Positions 173-45,441 of a stretch of DNA of 64,000 bases are shown here, piece after piece. Under the pieces are notes generated by a model. It was not told where the DNA came from. It was given only the letters and a program-made list of their open reading frames with translations, and ran no database searches. Position 1 is the stretch's first letter; every line of letters starts with the position of its first letter. A program made the translations under genes and the position numbers. The DNA comes from Laetmonice hystrix (taxonomy: Eukaryota). The stretch covers positions 7,566,001-7,630,000 of the forward strand of contig OZ249436.1 of NCBI GenBank assembly GCA_965235115.1, given 5' to 3'.

Positions 173-474
173 ATGGTTGCTGCGAAATTCTGGGATACGG
201 GTCACAATGCGCAATTCTCGTGGTGAAAGCTGCGCTCACGTGGCCGCGAAGTACGGTCACGTGGCATGCCTGCGTCTAATCCTATTTCACGGGAGAGTTC
301 GACCTGGAGTTGTTGTCAGGGATAACAATCGGCACGGAATGTCGGTCGTCCACTTGGCTGTTGTCGGCGGGCATCACGGCACTGTTGTTTGGCTCACCAA
401 TACCTTTGGTAAAAATGTGGGTCTCCTCCGGAACGGTCAGGGACAGACTGCGCTGCATTTGGCAGCAGCAGGAG
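173..474 (+). CDS. Ankyrin gene exon (three ankyrin repeats)
   Basis: Pyrimidine tract + AG at 171-172; GGAG|GTAAAA donor; WLLRNSG...AHVAAKYGH...VHLAVVGGH...QTALHLAAAG. Confidence 0.9.
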
Positions 475-3400
475 GTAAAATGTCCTTCAATAATTTTGTA
501 TGAGGGATATTAGGCTAATTACAGAAAAAATACTCAATATCCACATTTTATTCCGGATTTTCTTTTGTAGCACCCTGCAGCAAAAGTGGAATAAGTGAAA
601 AGCATGTTATTTGTTCGGATAGGCCTATTTCAACTCGGATGAACAGGGATAACTTTTTTTTAGGCCAGGTTTTCCAACTTCTTTTACAGTTAGAAAATAT
701 TCGAGCAGACGTGACTCATATATTGGTCTGTGTCTATAGATGTCTACCTCTTCAAGTTCCTGTTTGCTGTGATGCACTGACGTGGGGATTAGAGCTCTAG
801 TGCGTGCGATTTTGCTTGACACGCATCATACAAGTTACCTATAGGCCTCGACCAGGCTAAAACAGTTTCCTATCTACCTATAGGGCGTCTAAAATGTACG
901 GAGGCTCTCTGTTGGCTTGGTCCCGATGTCGTTAACGCAACGGATGACGTAGGTATGTCGGCCCTACCTACCTATCAAGAATCCGGGGATACATGGGCCT
1001 AAAGGTCTAGATCTAGATCTATAGGCCTAGGCCAATATGATAAGGTGTAGAAGTTTAAATAGATTCCACACAAGTTTCCATTGTCCAAAATGTCATCATA
1101 ATACTATATAATATTGTGTAGGCCCATGTATGGTTAATCTGACTTTCTATAGGATGCACTGCAGTCTATTACGCCTCTCAAGAGGGCCGGGCCATGACGT
1201 TACGCCATCTGGTGGATATCGCAAGGTCAAACCTTCATGTCAACACAAAGGACGGCCTGACCCCTCTTCATGTTGGATACATTGAATTTCTTTAACAATT
1301 ACCAAAATCTATTGAAACAATAAATAGGCTGACCACATAATAATGTAATATAGGCCCATTAGGCTACTCTTATAGCAGGGATAGACCTATGGCATTTTGT
1401 CTATCGAGGCCTAAACGTTTGTAGGCTAGTTGTGGCTTTTTCGTATTTGAATAAATGTGATTGCCTGTTAATGCCACGGTATCAATTTTGATGGAACCCG
1501 ATTTAATTGATTGTCAGGCAGCTGCACAGACAGGAAGGGTTGACATTGTCCATTTCCTTTTGCGAAAAGTGCGGGGAACCGACAATCTGCGTAGGTGGAC
1601 AAAAGACGGAGCTACAGTGTTCCACATGGCTGCAGGTATTTCTGATGCCATCAGCCTAGCTGGAAGCCTAGCAACTCTGATGTAGGCCCACGTAAAGACC
1701 TAGAGTATAGCGTGGTGCATGGCGCACCCCGGGGTAAGACGCCCGGCGGCATATCTCGCTTATAATTGCTGAACGTTGCTGCCACCTAGTGTTTTCTAGA
1801 AGTTTTACGCGCGACCGGAAGCCGTCCTATCCGACTAGCTACGCTAAGCCAGTTTCCCGGGGACTAGATCAAAATGATGTTTTTGCCCCTTTTTGAGTAA
1901 GGTCCGAAATTCACACATTTATCTGAAAAAGGGAGAGGATGTTGAATCCATGAAAAACTACCAACCGGATATAGTTCATATAGGCCTAGTGCTATACTGT
2001 TTTCTCTTTGTTCAAAGCAAATGGTCAGTTGGATACTTTTGTTTAAGGCAAATGGTCAGTTGGATACTTTTGTTCAAAGCAAATGGTCAGTTGGATACTT
2101 TGGCGCTCCTACTGAAGCAGCCGGACGCCGATCATATAGTGCGCATGCGTGATGTGTTTGGAAGTAGCCCGGCCCATGACGCAGCCGAGAACGGACACAC
2201 CAACTGTCTCAGACTGTTGTATGCTGTGGGCCTCGACATGCACCAGCCCGATAAGGTGGGTAGGATTGGCTGGAGTATAGGCTCTTTCACGAAGAACTTT
2301 ATAGTAATAAATAAAGGATCTAGTATTCTAGGATCTATGGCAGAGACCTAGGGCATAAAAAGGTCACATCAACAAACAGCAATCTTCTCACGAAAAGGGG
2401 GGTATTGAAAACCGAAGGGCACTTTTTCGGTTGTAAAAAATGCTCTTTTGTTTGTAAAAATAACGCACTTTTGGTTGTAAAAAGGGCACTTGGGGGAATT
2501 TGGGCGGGGGGGGGGGGGGCATTAGATCCACCACTGCTATTATCTAATTAATAGGTATAGATATATGCCTTGACCCATTCTCGTGCTTCATGCCCGTAAT
2601 AAACTCTCGTCTCCACCTCGAGCCTATTAGTGCATAAAGAAGTCCTTTCCCTGACATGCAATATCCGCTAAATATCCGGTTTTCTCATACACGTCCCGTT
2701 CACTGAGTAATCACCTGCTCCCCAGGACGGACAAACGCCGTGTACTCTTGCGGTCCGCAGTGGTTGTGAGGGATGGCGGGAGTTTGACCGGATGTTAGAC
2801 GTTAACCAATCACTGAACGGGGACAGCGGCGGAACATGTGTGTCAAATCAAGGTGAGGTCCTTAAACGTGGCCTCTGTGTTGGCCTCATGGGTAGGCCTG
2901 TATCAGAACTGCTGTGGAAGAATGCCCCTAGCTTCACACACATTTGTGGCAGAGAAGCCGTAGGGATATCGTATGTTTTTAGGTTTAATATTTAATGCAA
3001 AGGCCTAGCATTTTTATATATATAATCATTGGAAAAATTAACCGGATTGGCAGTTGAAAGTTCAGAACGATTGCGCCGTAGATTTGTCACAGATTCTTTT
3101 ATTACAGACCCAAAACTTTACGTTTCCAATGAGATCGACCGTGGACAATACAAGCTGAACGTGAACGACTCTTCCTCTGCTGATACGTTCATGGTTGAGG
3201 TAATCCATCACTGATCAGGACCTATTGAGGGCTATCATACGGTTGGATTGAGACTCGAGGGAGTTGTGTAACTGATCAGGACCTATTGAGGGCTATCATA
3301 CGGTTGGATTTAGACTCGAGGGAGTTGTGTAACTGATCAGGACCTATTGAGGGCTATCATACGGTCGGATTTAGACTCGAGGGAGTTGTGTAACTGATCA

Positions 3401-6400
3401 GGACCTATTGAGGGCTATCATACGGTCGGATTGAGACTCGAGGGAGTTGTGTAACTGATCAGGACCTATTGAGGGCTATCATACGGTTGGATTTAGACTC
3501 GAGGGAGTTGTGTAACTGATCAGGACCTATTGAGGGCTATCATACGGTCGGATTTAGACTCGAGGGAGTTGTGTAACTGATCAGGACCTATTGAGGGCTA
3601 TCATACGGTCGGATTTAGACTCGAGGGAGTTGTGTAACTGATCAGGACCTATTGAGGGCTATCATACGGTCGGATTTAGACTCGAGAAAGTTGTGTAACT
3701 GATCAGGACCTGTTGAGGGCTATCATACGGTCGGATTTAGACTCGGGGGAGTTGTGTAATTGATCAGGACCTACTGGGGGCTACCATACGGCTGGATTTA
3801 GACTCGAGAAAGTTGTGTAACTGATCAGGACCTGTTGAGGGCTATCATACGGTCGGATTTAGACTCGAGGGAGTTGTGTAACTGATCAGGACCTATTGAG
3901 GGCTATCATACGGTCGGATTTAGACTCGAGGGAGTTGTGTACAAAAAGTTAACCTAACGTGTTTCAGTGAATCACTTTCGTTAGCCCTTGCACATCATCA
4001 GGCTCATGTAAAAATCAGGACCTCTGCGACGATAACGAATCCATGTCCTTTCACACAGGAGAAGAAAGGTCTGTTTAGGAGAATCAGGGAAACCTTGGAT
4101 GAGGAGCGACGCGTCCAGCAACTTTATGAACGGCATATTAACTTCATGAAAAGACATTTCACACCAAAACGGACTTTTCACAAACGTGTCAACCAACATT
4201 CTACATCATACGTTCAAAAAAATCGTAGGTTACACCAGATTATATTTCTTTTTTAATGAAAACTGATCGAATACTGTCCGTCTCTAAACATCTGCCGTCT
4301 GTATCAGACGTACTGTTAGCTAAGTATCAGATGTACTGTTAGCTAAGATTGCCCTTATCAGTAAACAGCTACTTGGAACATCTATGCTCTCAATTCAACT
4401 TCAAAACTAGACATGCAGATTGCAGGCAATCAGGTATCCCGTTCCTCTATGGATGTATCTAGAAAGGTTCTGTATAGCATGAAAGCAAGTCAATCATACC
4501 AATAATGAGCATAGGGTTACAAGAGAAAGACTGTGGGGAAGGTATATGCCAAATCTGGAGAAGATTCTCCAAAAAATGAGGGAGCAGATACATTTTGACC
4601 AGTACTGAGCATAGGGTACCGACAGACCACTTAGACACCTGTGTACACAAAGATTTCTTCCAAATAAAAAATATAAAAATGAATACCAAAAAAAAGGGTT
4701 GACATAGGTGGGATTTTTAGGCAATACCCTTGTCATAAAATTCCCATACATCTGTTCACACACATATTTTGTAGAGTGTTTCTGTAAATTCATGACCACA
4801 GTAATTAAGAACTAAGTAAAAAATATTCAAAAAAAATAAAAATCATGCCATGGGTAGGATTCGAATCCACGACCCTTGGCAAGGAAGTCCTACACTCTAC
4901 CACAGCACCATCCGTACACGCACACAATTAGTAGAGTCCTGCAATAAATGAATGACCATTGCCATTGGCATAGAAGTAAACAACGATGAATTACATCATA
5001 CCGGGGAGAAGCCATACCAGGCTAAAAAAGGTCCCCTATTGTAAGAGAGCTATTTACCAAGATTACCGGAGGTAGAACATATATAAAAAAATGAAAAAAT
5101 CTTTTGTCACAGGTGGGATTCGAACCCGAGACCTCTGGCATGAAGATCATAGACTCTACCACTAAGCCATCCGGGCACACACTCAATTTGTTGAGTGTTG
5201 CTGTAAATGAATCACCATAGTGGTAGAGAACTGTGTGTTACGTCATACCATCGTTACGTCATAGCAGGCTTATAAAGGACGCCTAGTGGAAGAGAATTAT
5301 GCCATTATCATTAGATATCAACGAAATTCCACGAACTTCCTCATTACATGCAAAATAGACAAAATTCAAAGTCACGTGACTCAGCGATATGACGTAATAT
5401 TTTAAAAAAAACTGCCATCAATCGATCCGCCCCACTATGATGAAGCTATAAATCAAATTTGGAGAAGATTCTGTAAAAAATGAAGGAGTAGATAGATTTT
5501 GACTGTTTTCTATGGCTTGACCTGTATGTCAGAAAGGTCAAAGGTCAAAGGTCAAATGTATGTGGTAAATGATAAAGGTACAAGTCCTAAGTGAGATGAC
5601 ATGAATAACTTTTGTCTATCTCTGACTGGAAGTGTACCACGTGATCTCAAAGTTGCCAAACATAATACGTCATAACATGACGTCATGACGTCATATGACA
5701 TATTCCATCATATGTTGAGGTCTCCATGTCATGATGTATCTAGCCTGAAAGTTTCATCCAGATATCTTGAAAACTGAGGGAGATATTGACCCGACCTTAA
5801 CTACAACAATAATAATAATAATAATAGTGTACACCCAAACCGTACAATTTCAGGATCCCGTTCCTCAGTCGGAGGAACGGGATAATAAGGTTAAACGTGA
5901 CTCTGCTATTCAACTTCTACTTTAGAAATGTAACAGATGGAAGTTCTATTTGATAAGGTAGTACAAAAAGGAGCGTATCTAGTGGGATGGAGCTGCAATA
6001 CGAATGGGTGCAGTAATCTTTGGGGCCGGGTTTCGAGTCGAGAAGGGCGCTTAACAATGTTCTCTGTCGAGACATTCTGAAAGTTATCTGGGTTACGCAT
6101 GATGCCCAGGGTATAGATATATATACCCTTAAAACGGCCGTGCCTTGGTTACATAGGCAGAGCCCCGGTCAGCATGCCAGTTGGCGGGAAGGTCCTGATC
6201 GTCAACCAACACGAAGACGGAAGTGACATCACCGCCGAAACATTTTTAGATGCCAGGTGATACTTTACTTTCTGTATACATCCTTGACCAAATGGCTTTC
6301 TTTTGTCTTTTCATTTCACATAATTATACACAGGCTAACCCCTTTATATTCCGTCCCCAAACTGTGCTAGCTCTGTATTGTGTTTCTTTCTATTTTTCTT

Positions 6401-8724
6401 TATAGGTTTGATGTATCAGGTACATTGCTATGTGTAAATATCGGTGAAATTTAGGCAGTGTTTAAAAAAACAAAACACCCTTACATGTAGGCCTGAATAT
6501 TCCCTCATTTGTCAGCTTTCGGGCACATTGATGTAGCATTGATGCATGCCGCTATATTTCTAATATTGTCGTAAATATATCTAGGCCTTTTGAATTTAGA
6601 AATGTCGAGTGGAAGGACACCTTACAACCAATATTGCGTGACACACCATCTAGAACGCCAACGGAAATGAAACCTTGTGAATTGTCTCCTTCCGGTTCTG
6701 AGGAAACACATGATACGTCCTGTGAAGATTGGCCGACGTCCAGCAGTAACCATGGAAACGTTAGAACGTCTTCTCGTCCCAATCTGGGGGTACCACATCC
6801 CGGAGTTCCGGCTGCACACGGTTCACATGGCAATACAACGGACGCAAGCACCCAGACTCATGAGCCAGTCGATGAGAAATATGATGAGAAAAATTATTTT
6901 AAATTCGGTCAACCCCTGCAGTCCAAAAGGTCTGACGAAGTGAAATGGCAAGAAGCGCCAGAGAAACTACGCCGTAGGGGAAAACACCGTTATAGGCCTA
7001 AATATTACCAAAAAGTTTTCCAAACTCGAGGGACATTGGAATCTATTCCCGAGGGTGGATCCACAGATTGGGTAGGCCCACCCGGGAAACCTACAACTGA
7101 TATGGCATCAGGCACTCGAGGTACGTACGTTCAAGTGCCGCAATTCGACTGTGCCAACGCTGGTGAAGTTACCTCTTTCCAAAATAACGAAGAGGGCTTT
7201 AACTGGCATCGTGCAACAACAAACGCACCATCTATATCTACGGTAAATGGCCTCCAGGACCTTTATGTTCAGGCTAATATGAGCACGAAGGCCTTTAGCT
7301 GTTGTCCCATTGAAACCGGGAAAGTGCCCATCCCCAATGATGGTCTCTCTGTTGATAAATTAGATCGCAGTTGTGCTGGAACATCATTAAAACAAAGAAT
7401 TCATCCTACAATAGATGCGCTGAAGACGATCCTGGAACGTTCAGGAATTATTGCCCCATACTTGGAACACCAGCGCAGTAGTTTCCGAGCCACTCGTGAA
7501 GGAGTTGTAGGAGAAGCAGAGCACACGGGAAACACTTCAGAGGAATTGGATCAAAGACAACTCGTCATGAAACATGATGGACGTCTTCCCAAGAAGTTTC
7601 TGTTTGAGAAGAAAGGAGAGACCGCAGGTGGGCGTCCAGCTGATGGGTTCACTCAGACGGGGACACTGCCAGAGAACCAACCTCCACAGGACACGGACGG
7701 TCACAACGGACAGCCATCAGCCGGTAGGTTCTACACAACCTCCACCAGGGAGGTGACTAACCTCGATCATGGCTTGGCGCTTTATTAGTGTAAGATTGCG
7801 CATTTGACAAGCTGAACACAATTAACTTTTCTTGCTCTAGTTTGTTCAGAGATCAACTATTGTAGCAACCACTTTTGTCATTTTTACCACTTTGTCACAG
7901 GTCACCACTTTTGTCGCATAAAATGCCCACCTTTGTCACAGGTCACCATTTTTGTCCCAAAATAGCCAACTTTTGTCGTTCTCGAGGGTACCACTTTATT
8001 CATAATTTTTGGACCAAATTTGTTAGGCCACGACTTTTGTCATGCACCATGCACTCTGCCCACTTTTGTCACACCGAACATTTCTCTCTAATAACCTTGA
8101 TTTTTAGACTGAAAAATCTCCTCCCCTCCTCCTGTGATATACCTGACTACTTGTATGATTCTGGCGTACAATGTACGATTTTTGAACCCGTTTGTACGTT
8201 GTACGATTTACGCATTTATTTTACATTTCTGTCAATGTCAAAAATACGATTTGTCAATTTGGCACACTTTAGAATAAGTCTGTAGTCTCCCCATGTGATT
8301 GAATGTAATCTGATGATGTGTAAAATTTCTAAAGATCATAATTTTCTATTAAATTTAAAGAGTTAAGTTTTGATGAAAAAATGAAAAAAACGCAACTCAA
8401 TTTTTTGTGGGTGGTTCGTACGCATGCGGCCTGGAATTGTGATCGGCATGGCATGAACAATTAATTTCGGCTCACCCTCGAATCTTGAAGTGTCGGGGTA
8501 TAGTTTTTGGAGTGTCGGGATAGTTATTGATGTCTTTGTGTAAAATGTGTGCTTAACGTGCTTCTAATAATGCGTAGGCTCGCAAGTTATAAAATTTGGC
8601 ACCGGTAAAAGAAAAGGCCGGAGAAAGCGTGTAAATGTATTTTCAATTTTTTCATTTCATTTTGAACAAAAGAGGATCCTCCCAGCCAGGTCTGCTTCGG
8701 TGCGCCGTGCATAGTAGTGATAGT

Positions 8725-8757
<33 letters not shown>

Positions 8758-8896
8758 GACAGACAAAGACAGACACAGGGGAAAGAGAGATAGGGGAGGG
8801 CAATAGAGAGAGGGAGAAAGAGAGAGAGAGGGTGAGAGAGAGAGGGGGAAGGAGAGATATGGGGGGAGAAAGAGATATGGGGGAGAGGCAGAGAGG

Positions 8897-8936
<40 letters not shown>

Positions 8937-10944
8937 AAAAAAGAAAAAGTGAATTTGGTCTTAGTCGACTAGATTCGTTCATCCTACCGTTCGAAGATCT
9001 GGCGTCTGAGACAACACGTGATAACCCAATGATAGCCGCCATACGGAACTATGCCACAGATCGACCCACTGACGGGGAACGGGTTGTATTGCTACATCCC
9101 TTTAGAAGAGTCGTATCGCACTTTTCTCAGCCTTGCACCCTCCCGGCTCCAAGTGGATACTGTGTGACTCATCATACTGTCAGTGTTTGAACCATCAGCA
9201 CGTGTTGCCAGACTACGACCGAACGTGGACCCATGCAAGCTCCTTCCGACCCATCAGCCAGTTCATGGGAGACAGACCCGAGTCTATCTAAGCGATACTT
9301 TCAGACGTGACCGTTCACTGTACATTTGACCAGTGGTTTCGTGGCTTTATATAGTATGGAGGTCAAGCTGGACCTCCAGAGTGGTGTCCCACACAACCAC
9401 ATTGTTTTACTAAGATAAAAACATTTTACAGGCAACAACCAAAACCCTGGAGGTGTAGATCCCGTCTGTAGCACTAAAAATAGGGGGACCATCCATAGTT
9501 TCTTCCTGGAAGTTGATTTTATTACAAGATATTAATAAAAATGATAAAATCAGGGCACCATGGACAATGAAGCACGTGACACCGACGTTCTGCATACGAC
9601 AGTCGTCACTCAACGTCAAGGTCCACATATTTACAGTCATTTATATACAAATTAGGATCTCACCTCCAAAACCAATTGCCTACATGGCTGTATTTTAGTG
9701 TGTTCTTTACCACAAAGCAATATAAGTGAACACCGACTTAAACATCAGAAGGTTTTACAAGTAGAACATATTTCTCATTAATCAAGACACCATTTCCACC
9801 GTCCTGTCTGTCCAAATGAAAACAAGGTGTACAACCAATCATGTCTGGCGGTGTCATACTGTCTACAGGTAAAACTGTTGACTGTAACTGACTGACGTAC
9901 AGAGTCACCGGCGTGAGGTGTGACAAACAAACCTGGAAAATAGAAACCACTATCTGGTATTTATAGCACAAGACTTTATTAGAGGAGGGCGTTTACTGGC
10001 ATAGCTTTCAACTACTCTATTTACCACACAGATCTTGCTTACTTTCATACAGTAATTCAATAAATTATGCCCAATGGTTAATTAATCACTTGTTTATCGT
10101 TTGTTCATGAAGTAGTTAAAGTTTTAATATCAACTAATGCAATATGTGCCCCTGACTTCATGGATCTGTTATCCGTAAACCATCTCATTTCTGCCACGCT
10201 GTCTTTTTTGGCCTTGACAAGTTTAACAAAACCGGTCAAAAAATTATGACTAAAGTGATATCCTTAAGAACGACAAAAGTGGGCGACGTTGTGACAAAAG
10301 TGGTAACCTGTGACAAAAGTGGGCATTTTGTGTGACAAAAGTGGTGACCTGTGACAAAAGTGGTAAAAATGACAAAAGTGGTTGCTACAACTATACATTA
10401 GCTTATGAAAGAACATACAGATCTGATCGCGTGCGTATTGATATTATGTCAGATCTTGTGTTTGGAGGAGCGATGGAAAGCAAGATGCTATAGGCCTGTA
10501 CTTCTTTTATCTAGATGGTCATGCTATTGTTTTAGGAGTGCATGCATACCTGCTCCGATGTTTCAGCCATGATCATCGGGAAAGATTTGAAGCGACACTG
10601 GACCGTGACTCTGAAGCACGCATCACCAGAATTGGGCAAGAAGTTAAAGAGTGTGGATGACATGTCGGAACTAGAGTTACTTTTTAAGGTATAACCTTAC
10701 ACCTCGATACGCCTACGTACGCCAATTAGCTGACGATGTAGACGGGTACACGTACATGGTGGTACACTTACCACCCAACTATAAATAGGGGTCTATTTTG
10801 CTATGCATACTCTAATATAGTAGTCACAGTCATATTAGTATACATGTAGTATATATTATTTTTCTGATAATAAGGACAATTTTATCATTTCAGCTGCGTG
10901 CCAACCACATGCTACAACCTGGCGAGCCTCGCGTAATGAAGTAG
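173..10944 (+). CDS. Espin-like ankyrin-repeat protein, 5'-partial spliced gene (about 850 aa in window)
   Basis: Phase-consistent GT-AG exons: 173-474, 884-952, 1153-1271, 1518-1635, 2080-2255, 2726-2852, 3108-3199, 4019-4068 (or 4002-4068, tentative), 6161-6256 (or 6157-6256), 6585-7723, 7841-7860+10395-10430 (split by a transposon), 10536-10688, 10894-10944 (TAG). Repeats GESCAHVAAKYGH, GQTALHLAAAGG, GCTAVYYASQEG, DGLTPLHAAAQTG, DGATVFHMAAANG, FGSSPAHDAAENGH follow the order of the espin ankyrin block as recalled. The ankyrin exons are secure; the C-terminal exons are less so. Confidence 0.8.
884..2852 (+). CDS. Ankyrin gene exons 884-952, 1153-1271, 1518-1635, 2080-2255, 2726-2852
   Basis: Joined in frame: GRLKCTEALCWLGPDVVNATDDVG-CTAVYYASQEG...DGLTPLH-AAAQTG...DGATVFHMAA-ANGQLDTL...SPAHDAAENGHTNC...PDK-DGQTPCTLA. 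Confidence 0.9.
2009..2101 (+). repeat. 31-bp x3 tandem repeat spanning a splice acceptor
   Basis: TGTTCAAAGCAAATGGTCAGTTGGATACTTT repeated three times. Confidence 0.9.
3211..3940. repeat. 61-bp x12 minisatellite
   Basis: CTGATCAGGACCTATTGAGGGCTATCATACGGTCGGATTTAGACTCGAGGGAGTTGTGTAA; starts 12 nt after a donor. Confidence 0.95.
4846..4917 (-). pseudogene. tRNA-derived sequence (copy 1) inside the HINE
   Basis: Minus strand TGGTGCTGTGGTAGAG...GGATTCGAATCC A/B-box-like motifs at tRNA spacing; stems do not pair. Confidence 0.55.
5105..5176 (-). pseudogene. tRNA-derived sequence (copy 2) inside the HINE
   Basis: Minus strand GCCCGGATGGCTTAGTGGTAGAG...GGGTTCGAATCCC; good A and B boxes; acceptor and anticodon stems unpaired. 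Confidence 0.65.
6585..7723 (+). CDS. Large low-complexity (Ser/Thr/Pro/Gly-rich) internal exon of the ankyrin gene
   Basis: Covered by the 384-aa ORF 6634..7788; acceptor AG at 6583-6584; donor CG|GTAGGT at 7724 (alternative GAG|GTGACT at 7753). Confidence 0.75.
7861..10389. mobile_element. Non-autonomous TIR DNA transposon, TGT...ACA ends, 5-bp TSD (Ginger2/TDD-like, tentative)
   Basis: About 160-bp TIRs starting TGTAGCAACCACTTTTGTCA; ACTAT duplicated at 7856-7860 and 10390-10394; repeated CCACTTTTGTCAC motifs; no recognisable transposase; internal (GACA)n/(GA)n at about 8726-8940. Confidence 0.9.
10536..10944 (+). CDS. Last two exons of the ankyrin gene (10536-10688, 10894-10944)
   Basis: TTTTAG|GAG...AAG|GTATAA and TTTCAG|CTG...TAG; translates ECMHTCSDVSAMIIG...ELLFK-LRANHMLQPGEPRVMK*; AATAAA at 10997. 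Confidence 0.7.
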
Positions 10945-10996
10945 ACACAAAAATGTATATTAGTTCATAGTTTAAAAACTTTATTATAATTTGTTT

Positions 10997-11002
10997 AATA
11001 AA
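10997..11002 (+). promoter_or_regulatory. Polyadenylation signal of the ankyrin gene
   Basis: AATAAA about 50 nt after the stop codon. Confidence 0.55.
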
Positions 11003-13541
11003 ATTAGTCAATCTGTAGACTTGAAGGAGAAAATTAGAGAAATTTTTAACGCGTTTTGGTGTTTCAAAAAATCTTTATTAAAATAGTATGTACATTCATA
11101 AAAATATACAATAATGTAATGTGTCATTCTACAAAATCGTTAACTGCATATTTTGGGTGAACCCGCACATAACCAGTAACGTTTACATTCAGTCATGCTA
11201 GTCGAAATGCTTATATAACTTTACGATGAAGTATAGGGCTGGGATATAACAATAATAGCGAGTATTGACAGCTCTATAATGTTGACGAGGTTGTCATGAC
11301 GACAATGCCATGGCTACCAGCACGTGTATATATGTGGGTTGGCAATGTTATCTCCCCCGGCAGGAGAGTCTGGACGCTGCGTCTGTGGATGTATTATGCT
11401 TGTCTCAGCAGCCTCGACCATGTGCTTAATGCCGACTGAAAGACTCGGAATAAATGGATATCCAGCTACCAGTGGTCTTTGGTGGAGCATCTTGTATACA
11501 GCAAGAGCCGGGCATTTGAACGAACAACAATAACCTATAACAGTTAGCGTATTCACAGTATAATACACTACATAGACATTTGTCAAATATCAGTATAACA
11601 GTAATATAATAATCTGTAAACCGTCCAACCGTAACAATCAGGCGCAATTATACATATGGGTGAGGGGGGGGGGGGGAGGGGATTTTTTTGTTTGGACCTA
11701 TTTCTCAACATTTTAAAACCTGACAATTGGGGAAATACCTAAGAACAAACAACATGATTTATTCAGTCAACATGTTATATCATTAGACTCTATGAACTGC
11801 AGGAAGGGTTATCACGTGTTAGATGAGCTCACTACAGACGCGCCAATCATACAATATAAAAAGGACGTCATTTTGACGTCCATTCCAGATCAACCAAGCC
11901 CAACAACTTGGTCCTATAGAAACGGACAGGGTAGAAATCGTCTGGTAATAGTAGTCATGGAAACCCAGGCAAGGTAATGGTCGCCTTTGTTGTGTGTTAT
12001 CACAGATATACCGATGGAACCTGTGTAATGTGGGCTGCGTTTTGTGCGATGGAAGGCGCCGGGATGATGTGCGCCATTAATACTGCAGCTGTCTTCAACC
12101 TGACCATTCACTAAGACCGCTGTGTTCGGTCTCACAATAAGATCTTCGCCGAATGCTCTTGCCATCCTCACCCCTCCGTGAGGGGCCACCAGCTAACTCA
12201 CGAGATACATGCGATATGTTTGTCACTGCTGAAGAAGCACCAGCCTTACGTCAGTCAGACAACCTCTTGAACAAAAAATCACTTCAATCCATTTTTATTC
12301 ACGATTGGTCGTTATATAGTAGTCTCAGTTTCAGACACTTCATATTTTCCTTTTGCTGACAGAAGTAAAGCTCGTGGTCCTTCAGGAATTTTACAAGAAG
12401 TCCAACGTCCTTAATCCTTACATGTATTTGCATGTTGTAGGAGAAACTGCAGTTTCTTCAGTATTGGTATTAATGGTGATCCACCCGAGAGCTTCCGATA
12501 AACTGTCCGCTGAACTAAGAATCTTTTTCTGGTATCAAATGGCGGTGAGATATATAATAACATCAACCTGTGATTATTACAAATATCTGGGTAACTGAGT
12601 ACCGAGTCCTTTTTTGAAGGTTAGTGACTCAACTTTTTGGCCTCGGAGTAACTGTAACATTCAACAATTAGTTTCCACAGATTCACCATTCCAAATGATT
12701 GGGTCATGAACGCTCTCAGCACAATACTTTTCCTTCCTCGTCGATTTTATGGCACAAGGAGTGATTGTAAAGTCGTTTCTCTACGACTGTGCAAGTGATT
12801 GTAATATTTGCCATCAAATACTGGCCAACATATGGTAGAGATTCAAGGTCGTTTTCATTTATTATACATGTAGCGGTAGAAAACACGTATTATATAAATA
12901 CGTGCTTATGCTTTGGATGTTATGCTGCATTGGACGTGAGGAATGCTTCCAGTAATGAATGGTGATGATAATACTCGCTGGTGTTGGCAGCAATACATGG
13001 AAGGCACCGACTAAACGATGATACAGTTCGGACGGTGGTCCTTCTACTGTGGCCCAAATGAACAACCCCGTACTGCCCTGTACCACGCAGGAGGTTTCTG
13101 AGTTCGCGGATAGTTGTAGATTGTGAGTAAGTGCGTATTCACATATCTTTGTACTGCTGCCTTGTTGAAACGCACGACTATAAGCTATCCTGTGCAGTTC
13201 GGGGCAGACTTTACACAGGTGAAAATACTAGTCCCCCTATCGATTTGTACAGGGCAGAGTTCAAATAAAAGGGCAACAATAATTGTTGATTTCAGCCACA
13301 GCATATTTGCAAACGATTTGCAATGGTTGACATGTGTTGAACACAGCAGGTATGACGATTGTATCACATAATCACATGTTGGTTATTGGTCGTGGTGACC
13401 CTGACCAGCAGCATTGCCTTCACTTAGGTCTACGTGCGTGTTGTAACGGGTATGATGGAAACGTTGGTCAGTGTTGATTTAGCACCTTCTCACACCGTCA
13501 AAATGGCCATTGGAGATGGGAGTGGCAAGTCGGCAGGCTCA

Positions 13542-45259
<31,718 letters not shown>

Positions 45260-45276
45260 GATTGTGACTGTCTTCT

Positions 45277-45441
45277 TTAGCAGGTTGGCGGAGCAGCAGC
45301 AGCCGCGGCGGCAGCTGCAGCAGCAGGACCAGCAGCGCCAGCAGCGGTTCCCTCGTCTGGGGCGGCCCGATGGCCGGCTGGCTGGCTGACCCGGAGGACT
45401 GGCCGTTTAGCTGGCACGCTCCTACGGTACACTTGGTCCAT
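45277..45441 (-). CDS. Putative 54-aa upstream ORF with poly-Ala tract in the calpain leader
   Basis: ATG at 45441, TAA at 45279-45277; MDQVYRRSVPAKRPVLRVSQPAGHRAAPDEGTAAGAAGPAAAAAAAAAAAPPTC*; ends 17 nt before the calpain ATG in another frame. Confidence 0.3.
   Translation of the reverse strand: MDQVYRRSVPAKRPVLRVSQPAGHRAAPDEGTAAGAAGPAAAAAAAAAAAPPTC

Follow-up and report, generated by a model that had tools for sequence, protein, structure and literature searches.

Transposons that land in exons and are rescued at the RNA level are already known from maize Ds, from nematode Tc1 (SOS splicing) and from introners. In SOS splicing, paired inverted repeats trigger a sequence-independent excision in C. 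elegans and in human cells, and non-autonomous elements are excised as well (Zhao et al., 2025, Nature; PMC12779559); in the sections of that paper cited here, only elements in mRNA are affected, rescue occurs where insertions and deletions are tolerated, and the long-term evolutionary persistence of such rescue is left as an open question. The locus compared here with these systems lies in a 64,000-nt stretch of Laetmonice hystrix (assembly GCA_965235115.1, contig OZ249436.1, positions 7,566,001 to 7,630,000); this full stretch is called the window, and all positions are those of the window. A non-autonomous inverted-repeat DNA transposon interrupts an ankyrin-repeat gene, and it is likely, judging from the sequence, that it struck a 56-nt segment that was once a real coding exon. 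The explanation that we tentatively prefer, at somewhat less than even confidence, is that splicing from 7752 to 10536, bypassing a real exon, is the main source of functional mRNA, and that the insertion is old and homozygous.

The element and its parts are located as follows.
7861-10389 (2,529 bp), no strand assigned: non-autonomous terminal inverted repeat DNA transposon, with no transposase open reading frame in a six-frame reading
7861-8025, plus strand: left terminal inverted repeat with a tandem subterminal motif
10224-10389, minus strand: right terminal inverted repeat, the predicted partner of the left repeat in a duplex
7856-7860, plus strand: left copy of the target site duplication ACTAT
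10390-10394, plus strand: right copy of the target site duplication ACTAT
8964-9271, no strand assigned: internal stretch with contig depth several-fold above that of the element ends and no Rfam match

The element starts with TGTAG and finishes with CTACA (TGT..ACA termini); its terminal inverted repeat is perfect over the first 33 nt and extends over about 165-166 nt in all, at 88% identity. The 5-bp target duplication, known from a single copy at a single site, is A+T-rich and does not follow the pattern RTATAY. The right end of the element was also placed at 10389 by loose contig ends behind that position; a different delimitation, with a 6-bp TTGTAG end and a 3-bp duplication, would give the same empty site and was rejected on account of these loose ends. 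No transposase-like open reading frame was found in the six frames of the element or in a Pfam scan, and no Rfam match was found in the element; the 64-kb window holds no second copy, and the element end had no exact match in metagenome contigs. Three sequencing runs (X1 to X3), all of them DNA contig sets from one sample, contain the locus and were compared over positions 6500-11100; the listings shown comprised 15 of 37 joints, 40 of 131 variant rows and 18 of 550 loose ends. Relative to the flanks, contig depth is several hundred-fold at the element ends and several thousand-fold in the middle, a rough guide and not a copy number; the stretch 8964-9271 is probably a second, more abundant repeat carried within the element. 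The contigs include internally deleted derivatives (for example, the joint 8175-8513), and among the loose ends listed, 15 contigs of run X2 have differing flanks behind 10389; the internal deletions and differing flanks therefore indicate a dispersed, multi-copy family.

The host gene was modelled by hand. Donor sites were scored as a simple nine-position match to a U1 consensus, on which eight reference donors of the gene reach 5-7/9; the features of the model are given below.
173-474, 1153-1271, 1518-1635, 2080-2255, 2726-2852, 3108-3199, 4059-4224 and 6157-6256, plus strand: eight upstream exons of the hand-built model
6585-7723, plus strand: large coding exon with donor CCG/GTAGGT at 7724 (7/9)
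7724-7752, plus strand: 29-nt in-frame extension with the alternative donor GAG/GTGACT (GT at 7753, 7/9), for the bypass to 10536
7841-7860, plus strand: 5' part of the putative 56-nt exon
10395-10430, plus strand: 3' part of the putative 56-nt exon, with a donor at 10431 (6/9) and a weak internal AG at 10400-10401
10536-10688, plus strand: open exon of 153 nt, phase 0-0, with acceptor AG at 10534-10535
10894-10944, plus strand: predicted last coding exon with the stop; AATAAA at 10997

The nine modelled exons from 173 to 7723 form a single open frame of 779 codons, and the gene begins further upstream. The donor of the second exon at 1272 (CAT/GTTGGA, 5/9) is unusual but required for this open frame, and weak donors are therefore tolerated in this gene. 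When the element and one duplication (7861-10394) are removed, 20 and 36 nt join to a 56-nt segment between an AG at 7839-7840 and a GT at 10431-10432, flanked by introns of 117 and 105 nt; its phases (1 in, 0 out) are those required by the 7724 donor on the left and the 10534-10535 acceptor on the right, and with the 153-nt exon and the last exon added, the empty-allele frame amounts to 865 codons. An earlier note on this DNA had described the same restored exon, and its coordinates, phases and intron lengths were reproduced when recomputed; the stop that it had placed about 35 codons into the element follows after 34 element codons, as a TAG at 7963. The acceptor at 7841, with 10/12 pyrimidines and a branch-like motif at -19, ties with the best of nine reference acceptors. 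To score chance exons, the empty interval of 278 nt was dinucleotide-shuffled 5,000 times and searched for a phase-matched open exon; a comparable exon appeared in 14 shuffles at the observed site strengths (thresholds set after the exon had been seen), in 48 at slightly laxer thresholds, and in 386 and 1,013 at lax ones.

The chance look-alike argument can also be turned around. If the true donor is the one at 7753, the ancestral intron would have measured 249 nt, the insertion would always have been intronic, and the 56-nt exon and the donor at 7724 would both be accidental; we regard this as unlikely, at about one chance in five. The 7753 donor matches at 7/9, lies in frame, and is as rare in shuffles as the exon: a phase-matched bypass donor of 7/9 arose in 45 of 5,000 (0.9%) and one of 6/9 in 218, and none of the eight other donors of the gene has a comparable in-frame donor downstream. 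Base composition points in the same direction, since the G+C content of the 29-nt extension is like that of coding sequence (55%), and that of the 56-nt exon is like that of introns (35%). One of the gene's nine real introns contains a comparable pseudo-exon; 2,492 nt of exon sequence contain three donor look-alikes that reach 7/9, of which two belong to the large exon and have phase 1; and homozygosity is far easier to reach for an intronic insertion. Against these points, an intronic origin requires two chance events: a pseudo-exon of a strength seen in 0.3-1% of shuffles and, a short way upstream of it, a 7/9 donor in the matching phase; it also leaves as coincidences an acceptor at 7841 that equals the gene's best, complete with branch-like motif, and a frame that is restored on removal of exactly one duplication. 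The exonic insertion with in-frame escapes that the earlier note had proposed thus gains from the shuffle statistics (14-48 of 5,000), whereas the 7753 donor is equally non-random and therefore keeps the purely intronic reading alive. Both the exon and the bypass donor are rare, and most simply both are real, as an exon that was able to be bypassed; it is possible that either one is due to chance.

Five in-frame splice routes around or through the insert were enumerated (7861-10402, 7723-10402, 7752-10536, 7900-10402 and 7941-10536). The first three, already named as rescues in the earlier note, are open to the normal stop, with 863, 856 and 856 codons compared to 865 for the empty allele; codon changes are -2 for 7861-10402, +11 for 7900-10402 and +15 for 7941-10536. 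The last two routes start from two donors in the left repeat, CAG/GTCACC at 7901 and 7942 (6/9), which double as strong cryptic acceptors; these in-frame donors and SOS splicing are escape options beyond those of the earlier note. Of the five, route 7752-10536 has the best pair of sites, a donor of 7/9 and the native acceptor; its predicted product loses 19 residues and gains 10 immediately before an 86-residue tail. In the mechanism that we prefer, the transposon would have inserted into a real 56-nt exon with a 5-bp target duplication, and would then have aged and become homozygous; splicing from the donor at 7753 to the acceptor at 10536 would treat everything between them, broken exon and element included, as a single intron, and the protein would stay near full length. 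Perhaps the bypass already existed as an alternative splice before the transposon arrived, and the gene's tolerance of an exonic insertion would then be explained.

The routes that use a donor of the element itself (7862, 7901 or 7942) and a host acceptor (10402 or 10536) would amount to spliceosomal intron gain, a very improbable outcome here. It has in its favour that 7861-10402, 7900-10402 and 7941-10536 are all in frame, that introners can add or remove adjoining codons (PMC9860276), and that Ds1 offers several donors close to its end (PMC5432752), as described in the sections of these papers cited here. Yet the terminal GT donor at 7862 scores 3/9, below all eight reference donors; the acceptor at 10402, whose AG lies 11 nt past the element's own terminus, has 6/12 pyrimidines, equal to the gene's weakest acceptor, and is devoid of a branch-like motif (as are two real acceptors). 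The predicted repeat duplex encloses every donor of the element as well as the sequence leading up to 10402, and 2,529 nt far exceeds the introner family medians of 30-654 nt (PMC9860276, in the section cited). The earlier note had called this internal donor and acceptor weak, and the scores agree; the intron gain through the terminal GT that it had considered emerges as the least likely route.

The predicted repeat duplex also speaks for an SOS-type excision, in which the short introns would be spliced, the element would remain in the mRNA, and its repeats would pair; the element would then be removed imprecisely and independently of the spliceosome (AKAP17A, CAAP1, RTCB), and some of the messages would come out in frame. 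The left and right repeats are predicted to form a very stable duplex (-247 kcal/mol, compared to a mean of -66 and a best value of -84 in 50 shuffles); folded by itself, the left repeat is unremarkable (z=+1.7). Both splice sites of the putative exon, at 7841 and 10431, have been preserved, and 664 of 2,115 cut pairs near the element ends, about a third, are in frame and open; the excision described from C. elegans and human cells is triggered by inverted repeats that pair. Those demonstrations, however, come from other animal groups than this one, and exonic insertions are described as rare and probably purged in C. elegans (PMC12779559, in the sections cited). In addition, the frame is lost (+5 nt) if both duplications remain after excision, and the transcript might be intercepted at poly(A)-like signals or cryptic acceptors inside the element. 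We consider SOS-type excision a minority prospect, on a par with the intronic origin; it is similarly doubtful that a transposon has stayed homozygous in a constitutive exon for the span of haplotype divergence, with selection kept up via paired-end mRNA excision.

The contig sets bear on the zygosity and age of the insertion. Run X1 matches the window; run X3 has 11 differing sites in a 1,264-nt contig that continues gap-free to 7888, 28 nt inside the element; and run X2 has 6 differing sites and 3 nt missing. On the right side, contigs from all three runs start at 10362-10363 inside the element and continue into the flank, with 0, 4 and 2 differences. Unbroken flank-to-element contigs thus occur on the left in two of three runs and on the right in all three, some of them with non-window alleles. 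The empty-site allele that the earlier note had suggested looking for did not appear: such an allele should either break the contigs at 7860 and 10395 or carry them across the site, and among the joints listed for the three runs neither occurs. The left contig of run X2 departs from the window after 7768 with 29 unplaced letters, where X1 and X3 continue; this suggests that the second haplotype has a further structural change there, within the 117-nt intron, which may be another repeat or a deletion that extends to the element. Contig assemblies of heterozygous animals collapse bubbles. From this assembly behaviour we infer two haplotypes about 1% apart, seen as mosaics from one heterozygous animal; several individuals are possible. 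Three independent individuals were considered and rejected, since the shared sample label and the mosaic alleles fit one heterozygous individual better. The same contig behaviour indicates that the insertion is probably homozygous.

This copy of the element differs from nearly all of the family depth at 22 or more sites, at least about 0.9%; some of these private letters (17 of 22 rows checked) occur at approximately single-copy depth in more than one run, and the one at 9760 in all three. The 14 variants in the large exon comprise 8 synonymous and 6 non-synonymous changes, where 23% of sites are synonymous (P=0.006, or 0.03 if 30%), and point to purifying selection on this upstream exon; X3 holds all 8 synonymous variants, and X2 has 1 synonymous and 5 non-synonymous ones. 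A 3-nt deletion between the haplotypes, in the bin 7578-7731, is probably in frame. Four substitutions were seen downstream, all intronic, a weak signal (P of about 0.19, by hand). Because of the private element changes and the variant pattern, it is likely that the gene is alive and that the insertion is old and tolerated rather than a fresh knockout; the disrupted allele offered in the earlier note is a poor fit to an old, probably homozygous insertion and to purifying selection on the upstream exon.

Another possibility is that the 3' end of the gene is truncated or dead, because transcripts run on into the element, with its stop at 7963 and its internal poly(A), or because they are frameshifted, and that the loss of the last ~86 residues is tolerated. 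The frame closes at codon 820 both on read-through and on skipping from 7723 to 10536, the element contains three poly(A)-like hexamers (8348, 9534 and 10059), and the predicted 86-residue C-terminal tail has no known family; the departure of the X2 contig at 7768 means that a second structural change may affect this intron. Nevertheless, the downstream exons and splice sites are intact with no substitution seen there, an in-frame bypass with good sites is present, and the purifying selection on the upstream exon indicates that the gene as a whole is not dead; truncation appears distinctly unlikely, though less so than intron gain.

Several observations weigh against the bypass from 7752 to 10536 at an old homozygous insertion. 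The donor at 7753 has a competitor 29 nt upstream, the stronger-looking one at 7724, and splicing from 7724 to 10536 shifts the frame, with a stop at 10658, 28 nt before the last junction. At 117 and 105 nt, the flanking introns are short and could be spliced through intron definition; the element would then stay in the mRNA, a point in favour of SOS-type excision. Seven strong cryptic acceptors also lie in the element, alongside the poly(A)-like hexamers. Homozygosity is read from contig behaviour, over the 15 of 37 joints listed; every dataset comes from one sample, and contigs show presence, not absence. None of the three runs with the locus is recorded as RNA, and they have no bearing on expression. 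The selection signal is limited to the upstream exon, and protein and metagenome searches found no orthologue.

The searches behind this last point covered several parts of the host gene, in which Pfam matches are limited to ankyrin families in its early part. The large exon had no orthologue among 2,620 candidates, and the fourth ankyrin exon had none among 27; the first ankyrin exon retrieved only 29 generic ankyrin proteins (25-36% identity) and generic ankyrin clusters. The 153-nt exon had no match among 1.84 billion representatives and only unnamed weak clusters in the Atlas, and none of 454 pattern matches in metagenome contigs was confirmed. The gene bears a resemblance to espin, but an espin-like identity is not claimed, because the orthologue searches gave nothing usable. 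Within the same gene, a 31-bp unit in 3.1 tandem copies (2007-2101) lies across the acceptor and start of the exon at 2080, a small splice-junction "mirage"; and, by eye, many palindromes of the TAGGCCTA type occur between 80 and 2000, in short introns between ankyrin exons. Two similar tRNA-like stretches were seen by eye on the minus strand of a 1.9-kb intron (~4850-4915 and ~5110-5180), the second of them preceded by a 14-nt match, possibly due to chance, to the subterminal motif of the transposon; ARAGORN called no tRNA genes in the window, including these two stretches. Further downstream, the window contains a strongly strand-skewed tandem array of a 35-bp unit (35854-40979, ~147 copies, 97% match), and a minus-strand open frame at 45011-45406 that resembles a calpain first exon, with no Pfam match.

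Compared to described transposons, the element resembles Ginger2/TDD in its TGTNR termini (TGTAG at both ends; PMC2836005, PMC10045372), in its repeat of 165-166 bp, within their 50-180 bp, and in its A+T-rich target; its 5-bp duplication falls inside the 4-5 bp range stated for Ginger2 (Bao et al., 2010; Kojima et al., 2023). In contrast, the animal Ginger2 families treated in the sections cited have 4-bp duplications and RTATAY targets, and the 5 bp found here are shared with TDD-4 and TDD-5. Because a transposase is lacking and animal Ginger2 families have 4-bp duplications, the element is described as Ginger-like and non-autonomous, without superfamily assignment.

Like maize Ds and Ds1, the element carries several donors near one end, usable with host acceptors in different frames (PMC5432752); the Ds1 sites, in the part of that paper cited, are no more than 35 bp from the ends, and several of them were tested by reverse transcription PCR, whereas the donors here are predicted, lie 40 and 81 nt in, and are placed inside a paired repeat. 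Like introners, it has terminal inverted repeats, a target duplication, a GT at the tip and an AG in the host sequence nearby, and the two-codon net loss is of the reported kind; unlike them, it is much longer, has a poor donor, and is known here from one DNA copy (PMC9860276, PMC12130899, PMC11282704, in the sections cited). At 2,529 bp it lies outside the family medians of 30-654 nt, which are typical values and not strict limits; we would not class it as an introner, because its length is far above these medians, its donor is poor, and its splicing is predicted only. No Ginger-type introner was found by title in the literature searched, where supplements with introner datasets could list similar families; one Amoebophrya element is not a Ginger (PMC12130899, in the section cited).

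SOS substrates are a further parallel: as in those, a DNA transposon with inverted repeats lies in an exon, here a predicted one, the repeats are long and predicted to pair, and some of the possible excisions are in frame; unlike the SOS cases, it is a natural and apparently old, homozygous insertion in a different animal group, it has a spliceosomal bypass as well, and it is described here from DNA alone. If the plain 7752-10536 splice operates, this is an ordinary locus with a transposon in an optional exon or an intron; if SOS-type excision operates, it would be a natural, long-term SOS-dependent gene outside nematodes and mammals, before any clean intron had evolved. The locus constitutes a natural test of long-term rescue, as an insertion that is probably old and homozygous can be escaped here by five spliceosomal routes that keep the frame and by an SOS route.

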